Shown here piece after piece: positions 4,128 through 60,228 of a DNA stretch of 64,000 bases (positions are counted from its first letter, which is position 1; the number at the start of each line of letters is the position of its first letter). A program made the translations under genes and the position numbers. A model generated the notes under the pieces. It ran no database searches. It saw nothing but the letters and a program-made list of their open reading frames with translations, and was not told the origin of the DNA. Origin of the DNA: Planctomycetota bacterium (GTDB lineage: Bacteria > Planctomycetota > PUPC01 > DSUN01); NCBI GenBank assembly GCA_041320515.1, contig JBGLNR010000001.1, positions 1,047,658 through 1,111,657 on the forward strand. Reading direction: 5' to 3'.

Positions 4128-4601
4128 GTGCTTGAGCAGGGCTACAAGCAGCAGCAGTCCGACGCTGAGCGTCTGGGCTTTGCTACCGAGGCATTCCGGG
4201 CCTTGCGGGACGTCTCACCCTACGACCTTCGGATCGGGGCAGGCTTCGGCGGCGACAGAGCGAGGGCGCTGGCTGTCGCCCTGCGCGATGCGCGCAACAC
4301 GATCCGCACGATGCCCGCCCACTACACAACGTTCCCCAACAGCGAGGACTTCGTGTTCCCCTGCTCGCCCAAGCAGGTCAGGGAGTCCTCTGCCCCCATT
4401 CGCCTCGACGTCGACTTCCTGGCCCGCTACGGCACCTTCAGCGTGCCTCGCAACTTGTGGGACGCCATGACCCATTACGCTTGCTGGATCGAGCCTGCGG
4501 TCCTGAACGAATGGTGCGCCCTGATGGCAAAGTACGACGCTATTCGGACAGAACGCCGGCAACCGCTCGAGGCTCTGTCGTCTGATTGTCTTGTGCCGTG
4601 A
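4128..4601 (+). pseudogene. Internal fragment resembling the central region of methyltransferase/HNH fusion proteins
   Basis: LWDAMTHYACWIEPAVLNEWCALMAKY resembles that family; no convincing start and no HNH motif. Confidence 0.45.
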
Positions 4602-4682
4602 CGCGATCCGCGTACAATGAAGGGAACGAAGGCATCTCCCGGGGGACGCGGCACAGCCGCAGTGCGGAAGGAGTGTGCGCGG

Positions 4683-6284
4683 ATGGCAGGCGGGAAGTGG
4701 ACGAAGGTGGCGCGGGCGGCGAAGCTCCAGGACGGTTTGCCCATCTCGGTCACGGTCGGCCGCCGGGAGGTGCTGCTGGTCCAGATTGGCGGCGAGGTCT
4801 ACGCCTGCGGCAACGAGTGCACCCATTACGGCGCGCCGCTGTCCGACGGCGTCCTCCTGGGCAAGGAAATCACCTGCCCCTGGCACACCGCGCGGTTCGA
4901 CGTGACGACGGGCAGGATGGCGGCGCCGCCGGCGCTCGACCCCGTGCCCTGCTACGCCGTCAAGGTCGAGCGGGGCCAGGTCTACGTTCGCAAGGGCCAG
5001 CCCGCGCCGTTCCCGAAGCCGTCGGGGAAGGACGGGCGGACCTTCGTCATCCTCGGCGGCGGCGCGGCGGGCAACGCCGCGGCCGAGACGCTCCGGCGTG
5101 AAGGGTTCGCCGGCCGCGTGGTGATGATCACCCAGGAGAAGGACGCGCCCTACGACCGCACCAGCCTCTCCAAGGCATTCCTCGCCGGCGACACGGCAGC
5201 GGAGTTCCTGCCTCTCCGGGACGCCGACTTCTACGAAGAGATCGGCATCGAGCTGCTCACCGGCCGCCGCGTCGTCGCCGTGGACCCCGACGGCCGCACC
5301 GTGGCGTTCGCCCGCGGCAAGCCGCTGGCCTTCGACGCGCTGCTCCTGGCCACGGGCAGCACGCCGCGGAACCTCGACATCCCCGGCACGGATCTCAAGG
5401 GCTACTTCCTCCTGCGGTCGTTGGCCGGCGCGAAGGCCCTCGTTGCCGCGGCGGAGAAGGCAACCAGGGCCGTCGTCCTCGGCGCCAGCTTCATCGGCCT
5501 GGAGGCCGCCTCGTCGCTGTGCGCACACGGCATCGAGGTCCACGTCGCCGCTCCGGAGCCGGTGCCAATGATCGCCGTGTTCGGCGAGCGGATCGGCCGC
5601 GTGCTCCAGAAGAAGCACGAGAAACAGGGCATCGTCTTCCACCTCGGCCAGACGGCGAGGGAGATCCTCGGCGGCAAGCGGGTCAAGGCGGTGAAGCTCG
5701 GCGACGGCACACTGGTGGACGCCGGCCTTGTGCTGGCCGGTGTCGGGGTCACGCCCGCTGTGGACTATCTCCAGGGGACCGGCCTGGCCGTAAAGGGCGC
5801 GGTGCCCGTCACCCCGCGGCTGGAGACGAGCGCCAGCGAAATCTTCGCTGCGGGCGACATCGCGGCCGTGCCCGACCCTCACACCGGCGAACAGCGTCGC
5901 ATCGAGCATTGGGTCGTGGCCGAGCGCCAGGGCCAACACGCCGCCCGCGCTATGCTCGGCAGTGATCGGCCCTACGGCGAGGTGCCCTTCTTCTGGACAC
6001 GGCAGCACGACACCTCGTTCAAGTACCTGGGCTACGCCAGAACCTCCGACCGCATCGCGTACCGAGGCGATGTCGAGGGCGGGGAGTTCGTCGCTGGCTA
6101 CTACCAGAACGGCGTCCTGAAGGCCGTGGCGGCGGTGGGCATGGCCCGCGAGACCATCGTCCTCGGCGAAATGCTCAGGAGGGGCACGCCCATCGCCCCC
6201 GAGCAGTTCAAGGACGAAGAGACCGATCTGGCCCACTTTCTCGAGCACAAGCTGGCGGCCACCCCCGCGTCTGGGAGGTGCTGA
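4683..6284 (+). CDS. Rieske [2Fe-2S] plus FAD-dependent pyridine nucleotide-disulfide oxidoreductase (ferredoxin reductase-like)
   Basis: Rieske CTHYG...CPWH; GGGAAG FAD motif; GASFIGLE; AAGD; PFFWT; AAGGAG RBS before ATG 4683. Confidence 0.9.
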   Translation: MAGGKWTKVARAAKLQDGLPISVTVGRREVLLVQIGGEVYACGNECTHYGAPLSDGVLLGKEITCPWHTARFDVTTGRMAAPPALDPVPCYAVKVERGQVYVRKGQPAPFPKPSGKDGRTFVILGGGAAGNAAAETLRREGFAGRVVMITQEKDAPYDRTSLSKAFLAGDTAAEFLPLRDADFYEEIGIELLTGRRVVAVDPDGRTVAFARGKPLAFDALLLATGSTPRNLDIPGTDLKGYFLLRSLAGAKALVAAAEKATRAVVLGASFIGLEAASSLCAHGIEVHVAAPEPVPMIAVFGERIGRVLQKKHEKQGIVFHLGQTAREILGGKRVKAVKLGDGTLVDAGLVLAGVGVTPAVDYLQGTGLAVKGAVPVTPRLETSASEIFAAGDIAAVPDPHTGEQRRIEHWVVAERQGQHAARAMLGSDRPYGEVPFFWTRQHDTSFKYLGYARTSDRIAYRGDVEGGEFVAGYYQNGVLKAVAAVGMARETIVLGEMLRRGTPIAPEQFKDEETDLAHFLEHKLAATPASGRC

Positions 6285-6400
6285 GCCTTCGGCTGTGCCA
6301 CGGCCGGCTTGCCCAGCCGTGCTCCTTGGGGGCCATTCCTTTCCATGGCCGGGCTAGCCGACTCTGGCACCCATTCGTCAACGCGCGCTTGACGCCGCGG

Positions 6401-57946: not shown

Positions 57947-59062
57947 CTCACCCCCCTGGACGACACGGCCCGGGGCCTCCCACCGTGACAGATGGCCTGG
58001 CCGCGAGTCGCCGTTTGGCGATCCTCGGCCATCCGGCCAAGCGCTTCCCTAGCTCCCCGGCCCCCCGACTCGAGGATCGGCGATCCTCGGCCTTCCGGCT
58101 CTAGCTACCCCTAGCTCCCCTAGTCGCCCACTTCCGCGCCCCTTGGGGTCGGGTCTTCAAAATTCAGTTTCTTGAGAGCGCCCCAAGTTCTTGAGGTGCC
58201 GCCGAGCGCCCGGGGCGGAACTCTCGGGGGCGTTGCCCCCGAAGCACCAGGATTCACCGCCTTCGGGCCACCGCAGCGCCAAGAGGCATTCGGTCGCGGG
58301 CCCCGGCTTCCCAGAGGCTGCGGTGGCCCCAAAGCGCCGAATCCCAGAGGGCTGGGAGGCCGGTCCCACACGGCGGGGCTGCTTTGAGAAGCCTGACCGC
58401 CGCGCAGACACCAACTCAAGGAGTTGGGACTTTCCCAGAAGACCCGAGACCTGAACCCATGCCGGCCCTGGCCGCTCTCCATGGCCCCGGCGGGGCAGAA
58501 GGGGCTGGCCGAAAGTGACACCCGAACCTTTCCCTTTGAGCAAGCCCCTGCCGCAGGACAGGGACACGCAATGGCCCCATCGTTGGGGATCGAGCCGGCC
58601 CGGCGGCGAAAATGACACCCGCTGTCTTTGTTCCCTCTTCCGCCGATGGCGCGGACATAAGTGTCTACATGGCCGTATCTTATGGTCGGCAATGCTTGCG
58701 CGCGTCGAAAAAAGACAGCGGGTGTCTTTTTCCGGCGCACAGGAGTAGGCGAGCGGCGCGGAAGAGAAGAGAGGGACGGGGACCGTGGGGACGAGGAGGA
58801 GTGGCCACCTGTAGGAGGTCCACTCGTGCCTGTTGCTGGACGTAAGCTCTGGCACAGCCAGAGGTCACGACGATGGGCACATGCCCTACAGATGGCCAAA
58901 CCCAGGGGCGCGGGGGCTGGCCGCCTGTCGCCGGTTGGCGGTCTGGCGCGGGGGGAGGACGCTGCTGTGTGCCGCTGTAAGTCTCGATTGAGACAGTGGG
59001 TGTGTAGATGGGTCGTGGTCCAATGGACCGCCAAGTCCAGGGGCGGGGGGGATTGGCGGCCT

Positions 59063-59205
59063 AGATAGCTTTCAGCGATTCGGCGGCGCCCTCGGCGGCA
59101 CCAAGACTGCCTGAAGGCAGGACTCCGAACCAGGAGAGCGACCCGTTTGGAGTCCTGCCTTCAGGCAGTCTTTGCCCCAATGAGCCGAATCGCTGAGTGC
59201 TATCT
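59063..59205. repeat. Nested palindrome: outer IR enclosing a REP-like pair
   Basis: Perfect 24-bp IR AAGACTGCCTGAAGGCAGGACTCC (59103-59126 / 59149-59172) inside AGATAGC..TCAGCGATTCGGC / GCCGAATCGCTGA..GCTATCT. Confidence 0.8.
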
Positions 59206-59364
59206 GGCGCGAGGCGGATGCACTTTCGCAGGGGTGCGCTGCGGCCCTATTGTTGGGGATCGAGCCGGCACGGCGGCCCGCAACAATGGGTGGACCGCCG
59301 CGTGGGGCCGCTGTTGGCTGTGAACGTCGGTTGAAAAGCGCGGCGGGGGGCGGGCGGTCGAAAA

Positions 59365-60228
59365 GTGCGGCGCCCTGTTGGACTTTCCGAGCGTGGGACT
59401 GGCATACTGGGGGCTCCGCCCCTCGGCGAGGCATTCCTCCCCAAGTCGCTCAACGGCTGGACCCGCGTGGGCGCGGTCCGCCACTTCACGCCCGAGGCCC
59501 TCTACGACTACATCAACGGCGCGGCGCCCTTCATCTGTTCCTTCGGCTTCCGCTCGCTCGCCCAGGCGACCTATCGGCGCGGAGCCGACGAGGTGGTGCT
59601 CGACATCTACGACATGGGCTCGGCCGACAATGCCTTCGCGCTCTTCCGTAGCCAGTCGAACGTCGAGGCCGCGCCCCTCGACGTGGGCACGGAGGGCGCG
59701 GGCGACGAGGCGCGGGTCGAGTTCTGGCAGGCCCGCTTCTACGTGGCCGCGAGCGGCGCCGCGCCCGAGGCCCGCGCCCGCGTGGCCGCCCTGGCCCGCG
59801 ACCTCGCGCGCGGCCTCCCGCCCACCAAGGCCTGGCCGGCCTATCTGGGGCTTCTGCCGGCGGAAGGCCGCCTCGCACGGACGGAGACCTATGCTCCCGC
59901 CGACTTCCTCGGCCACGAGTGCCTCAAGCGGGCGGTCTCCGCGCGCTACAGGCTGGGCGACCGCGAGGCGATGGCCTTCGCCTGCCGCTACGACGGCGAG
60001 GCCGAGGCCGCCGCGGCACTCGCCCGCCTCGAAGCCCACTACCGCCAGAAGCAGGCCCCACGGCCCCTCGCCCTGGGCGACGGCGGCTTCGTCGTCGCCG
60101 ACCCCACCCAGGGCCAGCTCGCCGCATTCCGCCGCGGCGCCTTCCTCGGCGGCATGACCCGCCACGGCGACGACCCCGCCGCCAAAGCCCTCCTCGCTGA
60201 CCTCGACCACCGCCTTGCCACCCGCTGA
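59365..60228 (+). CDS. DUF6599-like protein; true start not found
   Basis: LYDYINGAA..F..GF, VLDIYDMGSADNAFALF; family-like sequence begins ~59430 with no RBS or signal peptide. Confidence 0.65.
   Translation: MRRPVGLSERGTGILGAPPLGEAFLPKSLNGWTRVGAVRHFTPEALYDYINGAAPFICSFGFRSLAQATYRRGADEVVLDIYDMGSADNAFALFRSQSNVEAAPLDVGTEGAGDEARVEFWQARFYVAASGAAPEARARVAALARDLARGLPPTKAWPAYLGLLPAEGRLARTETYAPADFLGHECLKRAVSARYRLGDREAMAFACRYDGEAEAAAALARLEAHYRQKQAPRPLALGDGGFVVADPTQGQLAAFRRGAFLGGMTRHGDDPAAKALLADLDHRLATR

Follow-up and report, generated by a model that had tools for sequence, protein, structure and literature searches.

Gene-breaking junctions in a 64-kb Planctomycetota window: most likely the joins of short contigs set end to end, with ordinary gene remnants inside the blocks

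The stretch of DNA considered here, 64 kb from a Planctomycetota bacterium (GenBank assembly GCA_041320515.1, contig JBGLNR010000001.1, positions 1,047,658 to 1,111,657 of the forward strand; hereafter the window), contains many genes that break off abruptly, copA, clpB and arfB among them, and so raises the question of whether a genome is decaying or whether its sequence was put together from pieces. A preliminary description, made from the sequence alone, had proposed at least 13 such gene-breaking junctions; we found truncated or chimeric genes at or near 13 of its 14 listed coordinates, the 14th being a switch at ~20944 that gained no family support. Comparison with related assemblies divides the breaks into Class A, the joins between blocks of the window, and Class B, the breaks within blocks. 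With a probability of about 0.87, the 5,973,921-bp record to which the window belongs is a pseudo-molecule of short-read contigs joined end to end and not one assembled molecule, and the large Class A junctions are an artefact of assembly and not genome decay. The smaller Class B breaks are genuine remnants of genes, of an ordinary kind and for the most part within a decayed defence island, and nothing in the window is a new biological feature.

The window has a G+C content of ~68% and contains no N. Since spurious open reading frames (ORFs) are frequent at such a composition, coding frames were assigned by the G+C content of third codon positions (GC3), and ~60 ORFs were then scanned against Pfam. 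Exact-protein look-ups located near-identical DNA in two sister metagenome-assembled genomes (MAGs), called T (GCA_041308305.1, contigs JBFZBT...) and U (GCA_041308325.1, contigs JBFZBU...), and in a third comparison set, the Logan contigs from run SRR28346263. The sister contigs were aligned to the window by BLAST and their ends compared base by base; those needed by name are U1108 (JBFZBU010001108), T628 (JBFZBT010000628), T562 (JBFZBT010000562), T944 (JBFZBT010000944), T1052 (JBFZBT010001052) and T768 (JBFZBT010000768), with T388, T124, U390 and U877 shortened likewise. T and U are 99.3-100% identical to the window and carry its DNA as separate contigs of 4.6-10.5 kb, and a cluster look-up placed proteins from every block of the window on one NCBI contig of 5,973,921 bp. 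A literature search on the accession and run numbers found no paper.

Joins between blocks of the window

Seven Class A joins divide the window into eight blocks, which contain the following genes.

1-8522: B1, cut by the window start; VIT protein, methyltransferase-like fragment, Rieske/FAD reductase, 5'-truncated copA
8523-16971: B2, 8449 nt, GC 65%; decayed defence island
16972-25397: B3, ~8426 nt; PFK, unknown 573-aa protein, antitoxin and short stub, GFO/IDH oxidoreductase, GNAT, hydrolase
25398-33808: B4, ~8411 nt; WbsX-like gene, RibBA, Ser/Thr kinase, DnaK, N-terminal half of ClpB
33809-42199: B5, ~8391 nt; Hzs-like C-terminal part, GYF protein, GH4, DUF6785/6784, TauE, FmdE, ArfB C-terminal fragment
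42200-51079: B6, 8880 nt; PA14/PATR repeat protein, SDR, esterase, DUF4258, an end resembling an insertion sequence (IS)
51080-59417: B7, 8338 nt; ABC transporter, DUF4276/AAA_21 pair, ProRS, URO-D-like gene, bifunctional nuclease, tRNA-Ser
59418-64000: B8, cut by the window end; DUF6599, glycosyltransferases, sulfatase (from Pfam)

What each join brings together is as follows.

8522/8523: truncated copA beside an unrelated block
16971/16972: a join absent from the preliminary description
~25397/25398: hydrolase ORF beside a 5'-truncated WbsX-like gene; bounded to 25118-25401
33808/33809: ClpB beside an HzsA-like gene, in frame; position exact
~42199/42200: ArfB fragment beside a PA14/PATR protein cut in its PATR repeat; position good to ~5 nt
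51079/51080: IS-like end beside an ABC-2 permease gene lacking its 3' part
59417/59418: intergenic DNA beside a DUF6599 gene lacking its N-terminus

Within the blocks, the sister contigs follow the window closely.

U1108 (8410 nt) 1-8388: window 135-8522, 99.99% identical
T628 1810-9473: window 859-8522, 99.78%
T562 (8491 nt) 23-8468, reversed: window 8523-16971, no mismatches, one 3-nt gap
T388 (8168 nt) 23-8168: window 16972-25117, 99.3%
U877 (6427 nt) 23-6427: window 16972-23376, 100%
Logan contig: window 18366-21390, 100%
T124 from its position 1: window from 25402, 95% over the first 651 nt, then 99.8%
T944 1742-4942: window 33809-37009, 100%
Logan contig: window 39592-41551, 100%
T1052 (8386 nt) 23-8163, reversed: window 42939-51079, 100%
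T1052 8288-8386: window 42939-42841, 100%
T768 (10516 nt) 2157-10494: window 51080-59417, 99.89%, 9 mismatches

Collinearity extends over 25402-31435 in T124 and over 26716-31363 in U390, and none of the contigs retrieved from T, U or Logan crosses a Class A join. At six block ends (8522, 8523, 16971, 16972, 51079 and 59417) a contig of T or U overshoots the block by 22 nt (in one case 23) before it ends, and these overhangs differ from the bases that follow in the window. The T and U contigs run on past 8522 with TCCGTTGGGCATTCCGTGAGCT (22 nt) and then end, and on the other flank T562 continues with 23 different nt. T562 also overhangs 16971 by 22 nt, so that block B2 is this one contig minus 22 and 23 nt at its ends, and the first 22 nt of both T388 and U877, ahead of 16972, do not occur in the window. 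T1052 overhangs 51079 by 22 nt, and T768 extends 22 nt past 59417 (CCGATGTCCCCGGACGCCGGCC), unlike the window, and then ends. At 8522/8523, 16971/16972 and 51079/51080 both flanks are thus contradicted by sister contigs. The idea that the 22-nt overhangs are hairpin artefacts was rejected; neither overhang tested recurs in the window or in the other contig.

At two joins a sister contig reads through the block end and shows what lies beyond it. Left of 33809, T944 completes the HZS_alpha gene (838 aa, intact) and has a LOG-family gene in place of clpB; left of 51080, T768 completes the ABC-2 gene (308 aa, intact) and carries an FG-GAP gene as well. The join near 25398 is bounded by the end of T388 at 25117 and the start of T124 at 25402, and the WbsX profile match of the gene to its right starts at position 101 of 350. 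That near 42200 rests on translations and Pfam, and the DUF6599 domain begins 12 residues past 59418.

Block B6 terminates within a reading frame (window 50992-51079, '...AKGATINWQFTIEDARRKLK') which we take to be IS-like; that the T contig ends 22 nt past 51079 would fit a repeat at which assemblies break off. The joins have in common no repeat, IS or motif, and we saw no microhomology at them, which agrees with the earlier remark that no single motif is shared. A Pfam map of the window revealed none of the missing gene halves elsewhere in it. A scan of JGI metagenomes gave no match for a junction 45-mer, but it is uninformative, since a within-block control matched nothing either.

Six breaks that the preliminary description had read from gene similarity alone thus coincide with block ends. 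The copA break is real and lies at 8522/8523, ~100 nt from the proposed ~8423; the hydrolase/GH99-like break at ~25398 falls within the bounds set by the sister contigs; the clpB/HzsA-like break at ~33809 was placed exactly; the PA14/arfB break at ~42200 is borne out by the short extent of ArfB (residues 76-133 of 140); and those given as ~51078 and ~59430 lie at 51079/51080 and 59417/59418.

The genes cut at these joins retain strong similarity to known proteins over the parts that are present.

32595-35780, plus strand: chimeric ORF of 1061 aa, ClpB residues 1-~405 followed by the C-terminal ~655 residues of an HZS_alpha/cytochrome-c protein (Pfam and translation)
6831-8522, minus strand: CopA-type ATPase, ~175 N-terminal residues missing
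41990-42199, minus strand: ArfB fragment, C-terminal ~60 residues only, GGQ domain absent

The ClpB part comprises Clp_N, the first AAA module (NBD1) and 66 of the 104 lid positions, and everything from the M domain onward is absent, so that the ClpB architecture, a pair of AAA+ modules separated by a coiled-coil M domain, is not present; its similarity to a 93%-identical relative ends at '...KLRME', that is, at base 33808. CopA aligns with residues 204-735 of 736 of the Legionella protein (3RFU, E = 4e-200), and the ArfB fragment with residues 76-133 of 140 of E. coli ArfB/YaeJ (4V95, E = 1.7e-6), without the N-terminal GGQ peptidyl-tRNA hydrolase domain. Each of the three is cut by a contig end, whereas the HzsA-like and ABC-2 genes at two of the joins are intact in the sister assembly. 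The HZS_alpha-middle-domain protein, with its cytochrome-c motifs, occupies 33809-35780 in the window and is intact with 838 aa on T944, 1197-3713; its closest named relatives are from Planctomycetota at 47-51% identity, including a MAG labelled Candidatus Anammoximicrobium.

The protein records point the same way. ORFs within blocks occur on two or three contigs. Those that cross joins, namely the ClpB-Hzs ORF of 1061 aa, the ABC-2 ORF of 253 aa and the hydrolase ORF of 491 aa, occur on the 5.97-Mb record only, and the intact 308-aa ABC-2 protein is present on two other contigs. Since the 5.97-Mb contig is the recorded source of these spanning ORFs, spacer-free joins exist in the deposited sequence, and for the same reason we rejected the idea that the joins were made when the window was cut. 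ORFs continue across joins because stop codons are rare in DNA of 68% G+C, and the in-frame match of ClpB to Hzs is a one-in-three chance. Among 80 genome loci, a set that contained no close representative of the source species, not one had both halves of the ClpB-Hzs fusion.

The lengths of the complete blocks B2 to B7, given by the joins at 8523, 16972, 25398, 33809, 42200, 51080 and 59418, are 8449, 8426, 8411, 8391, 8880 and 8338 nt; apart from B6, the other five decrease steadily and in small steps. Length order alone predicts the join of B3 to B4 at 25391-25402, which matches both the position of 25398 in the preliminary description and the bounds set by T388 and T124. Such a series is what the pasting of an assembler's length-sorted contigs gives. 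Strict length sorting was rejected as a complete account, since it explains the other five complete blocks but not B6.

Weighing the explanations

Most probably, the contigs of a fragmented Planctomycetota-like MAG, assembled from short reads with a de Bruijn graph, were set end to end without N spacers, apparently ordered by falling length, which would give the window its blocks of ~8.4 kb. Every join would place two arbitrary contig ends side by side, and genes cut at those ends (copA, the hydrolase, clpB, the HzsA-like gene, arfB, PA14/PATR, the ABC-2 permease and DUF6599) would appear broken or fused. What is observed here is that block ends fall at sister contig ends, that sister contigs read through, that the spanning ORFs are exclusive to the record, and the block lengths; the length sorting and the cause of the 22-nt offsets are parts of the account that we infer. 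The offset at the shared ends would fit two de Bruijn graph assemblies whose k differed by 22 (e.g. 55/77 or 119/141), or alternatively a systematic trimming of ends. Pasting the contigs of a MAG into one sequence is a known practice. Our search found no paper describing such concatenated bins or pseudo-chromosomes. The window resembles this kind of artefact in that its blocks are short-read contigs, that its joins fall mid-gene between unrelated neighbours without a common junction motif, and that the lengths of five of its six complete blocks descend as in length-sorted assembler output. It differs in having no N spacers at the joins, in block ends that fall 22-23 nt short of the sister contigs, and in block B6, which is out of order and altered.

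Several points weigh against this account, and the odd block is the first of them. B6 breaks the descending series, being ~515 nt too long for it, and T1052 minus 22 nt (8364 nt) would fit exactly. Relative to T1052, the window lacks 124/125 nt at 42939/42940, where the preliminary description had rightly noted an internal break (~42944, here ~42940); the gap shifts the frame of the PA14/PATR repeat protein, which is split over two frames, and no repeat lies at its edges. B6 also runs 641 nt beyond the end of the T1052 contig, and the sum 8364 - 125 + 641 = 8880 equals the observed length. This suggests that the contig was altered after ordering, perhaps by local reassembly or polishing, and the gap itself may be an assembly or polishing error or a strain deletion. 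Further, no sister contig directly contradicts the joins at ~42200 and ~25398 or the right flank of 59418, and the absence of reads spanning the Class A joins is something that we infer. Finally, T, U and the source probably come from the same study, and systematic assembly errors may then be common to all three; this risk matters for Class B, because block B2 is supported by T alone.

Other explanations have to be set against the pasting of bare contigs. The nearest to it, suggested already in the preliminary description, is that the deposited scaffold separates its contigs by runs of N, which were stripped when the window and the protein collection were prepared; the joins would again be artefacts, although spacer-free joins would not exist in the deposit. 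An identical block structure would result. The 1061-aa ClpB-Hzs ORF, however, is on record for the 5,973,921-bp contig without X residues, so gene calling read through the join, and the window itself has no N, which leaves this version improbable. A laboratory or long-read-assembler origin, such as ligation or amplification chimeras of size-selected ~8-kb fragments, would account for the narrow size range of the blocks. Random shear ends, on the other hand, are not expected 22 nt from de Bruijn graph contig ends in two other assemblies, nor is a monotonic length order expected of chimeric molecules, and B2 is one whole short-read contig; chimeras, which the preliminary description had offered as one option, are not needed for any junction and seem very unlikely.

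The junctions might instead be real, the product of many gene-breaking rearrangements or deletions, with both arrangements coexisting in the population and the sister assemblies breaking where they branch. Sister contigs do end near six block ends, as a branching graph at true breakpoints could make them do. Yet real breakpoints are not expected at spacings of 8449, 8426, 8411, 8391 and 8338 nt, the genes are intact, beside different neighbours, in a strain whose sequence matches at 100%, and the sister contigs do not stop at a branch point but run on for 22 nt that differ from the window. Nor did the window yield a missing gene half, or the joins any microhomology or common motif, and we regard real junctions as very improbable too. 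The full form of this idea, a Planctomycetota-like genome with gene-breaking rearrangements every 8-9 kb, including an in-frame ClpB-HzsA-like fusion, alongside the intact arrangement, would call for some unknown and highly active process of recombination or deletion, and it deserves only the slightest credence.

The most parsimonious interpretation of the Class A joins is therefore that of contigs pasted end to end. Outwardly the record looks like a closed 5.97-Mb chromosome, and most likely it is hundreds of short contigs glued together; it should be handled as an unordered contig set. Gene order across joins, operon and synteny inference, pseudogene counts, GC-skew and replication-origin analyses and completeness labels taken from it would be wrong, and so would 'fusion proteins' such as the 1061-aa ClpB-Hzs ORF, which is already in protein collections. 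Other windows of the record are expected to show false gene-breaking junctions, spaced by the local contig size (here ~8.4 kb).

Breaks within blocks and the decayed defence island

Class B comprises the sites ~4570, ~10050, ~10450, ~12148, ~13316-13380, ~13930-13975 and ~20944. Their scars are identical within contigs of independent assemblies, and the breaks are real remnants, each arising from the deletion or truncation of a gene. The preference of the preliminary description for gap-stripped or concatenated contigs thus stands for ~8423, ~25398, ~33809, ~42200, ~51078 and ~59430 and fails for ~4570, the five junctions from 10055 to 13975 and ~20944, which lie inside shared contigs. Nor do the Class B remnants, which are ordinary, give evidence for its alternative, an unusually active deletion process. 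Because five of the seven breaks sit in one acquired island of 4 kb in block B2, no genome-wide deletion process is indicated. The remnants and the genes among them are listed below.

13316-13930, minus strand: fragment of dcm (C5 cytosine methyltransferase), N- and C-terminal motifs absent
12169-12984, minus strand: HNH_2 endonuclease ORF (Pfam HNH_2), 271 aa, uninterrupted, at the canonical position of the ATPase gene
10463-12146, minus strand: Z1-domain fragment, residues 259-793 of 890, starting at the Walker-B motif 'LIDDEADQAS', fused in frame to the DUF4420 fragment
10049-10433, minus strand: DUF4420 / PD-(D/E)XK fragment, residues 32-160 of 333
9408-10085, plus strand: ATP-dependent ligase remnant, adenylation domain without OB domain, convergent with DUF4420 and abutting it at ~10050
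4107-4601, plus strand: methyltransferase-like remnant, a 157-aa ORF whose similarity ends at ~4570-4580
20900-21236, minus strand: 93-aa ORF, tentative antitoxin (20955-21236), with a stub of ~20 residues; a weak Class B case

The island is a horizontally acquired and decayed dcm-(ATPase)-Z1-DUF4420-(AIPR) defence operon. For reference we used the operon vsr-dcm-ATPase-Z1-DUF4420 (PD-(D/E)XK)-AIPR of Agrobacterium salinitolerans pDG3-1d and of the Priestia aryabhattai K13 plasmid unnamed1. Gene order and orientation agree with it, dcm, Z1 and DUF4420 following one another co-oriented on the minus strand (13930-13316, 12146-10463 and 10433-10049), and Z1 and DUF4420 are 40% and 36% identical to the Priestia proteins. 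Unlike the reference, the window has no full-length set of the five components: all of its operon genes are fragments, neither the ATPase nor the AIPR gene is there, dcm and Z1 are separated by an HNH_2 endonuclease, and a ligase fragment abuts the end.

Each of the breaks in the island that the preliminary description had noted was recovered. The dcm fragment, ~13316-13930 where breaks at ~13380 and ~13975 had been proposed, corresponds to residues ~233-433 of the 536-aa Dcm of the Agrobacterium plasmid pDG3-1d and to positions 141-182 of 324 of the Pfam DNA_methylase profile. The HNH_2 ORF gives a weak NCBIfam match to the PT-DNA restriction endonuclease, at 50.8 bits against a cut-off of 180. 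At ~12148 the Z1 remnant begins at its Walker-B motif, and the Z1/DUF4420 junction, proposed at ~10463, lies at ~10433-10463; Z1 and the partial DUF4420 (profile positions 29-156 of 306) share one 839-codon open frame, and the fusion ORF of 772 aa, found on two contigs, is also called on T562. The ligase/DUF4420 junction lies at ~10050 (proposed ~10055), with both genes partial by profile and homologue alignment, the ligase matching NHEJ_ligase_lig at 11-165 of 302 and RNA_ligase at 2-161 of 171, both under the curated cut-offs.

Two sites lie outside the island. The methyltransferase-like remnant, whose end accounts for the ~4570 break, equals residues 271-430 of a 578-aa plasmid homologue with a methyltransferase domain; its 157-aa ORF is called identically in T and U, both of which are collinear there. 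The ~20944 site, read earlier as a switch of similarity within a toxin gene, is not an assembly break, the region being collinear in T, U and a Logan contig (three assemblies, two different assemblers). Database searches with the 93-aa ORF and the stub matched no family; the stub of ~20 residues after the antitoxin stop, a possible toxin remnant, may resemble a RelE/ParE C-terminus. At its upstream end, the open frame of the 93-aa ORF overlaps with a large imperfect inverted repeat (21334-21552), shared by T and U, whose 107-nt arms are 76% complementary and enclose a loop of 5 nt.

Other features of the blocks

In strain T an IS66-family transposase lies upstream of the VIT gene (T628 1-1809), and window 1-858 is unrelated there. 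Within the WbsX-like gene, 66 nt at 26053-26114, in frame, are absent from the T contig; that contig matches the window at only 95% over its first ~650 nt, so the region varies between strains.

Repeats are found in several intergenic regions. Two arrays of the 9-nt unit GATCCGTCN, with ~5-6 copies each, lie at 32492-32576, upstream of clpB, and at 56123-56207, between proS and the URO-D-like gene. Also intergenic, at 27061-27097 and 47636-47672, are two copies, 92% identical to each other, of a G+C-rich palindromic element of 37 nt (ACCCCCCTCCCTG/TCCAGGGAGGGGG...), which could be a repeat of the repetitive extragenic palindrome (REP) or terminator type. The end of block B7 (57800-59417) is mostly non-coding after the tRNA-Ser gene (57857-57946) and has several strong hairpins (e.g. 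59103-59172, with 28-nt arms, 96%) and a 49-nt direct repeat at 58559 and 59229; Rfam gave no match in this region. Adjoining the ABC transporter in the same block, an uninterrupted pair of DUF4276 and AAA_15/AAA_21 ATPase genes (52666-54587) resembles an OLD/AbiEii-like defence pair.

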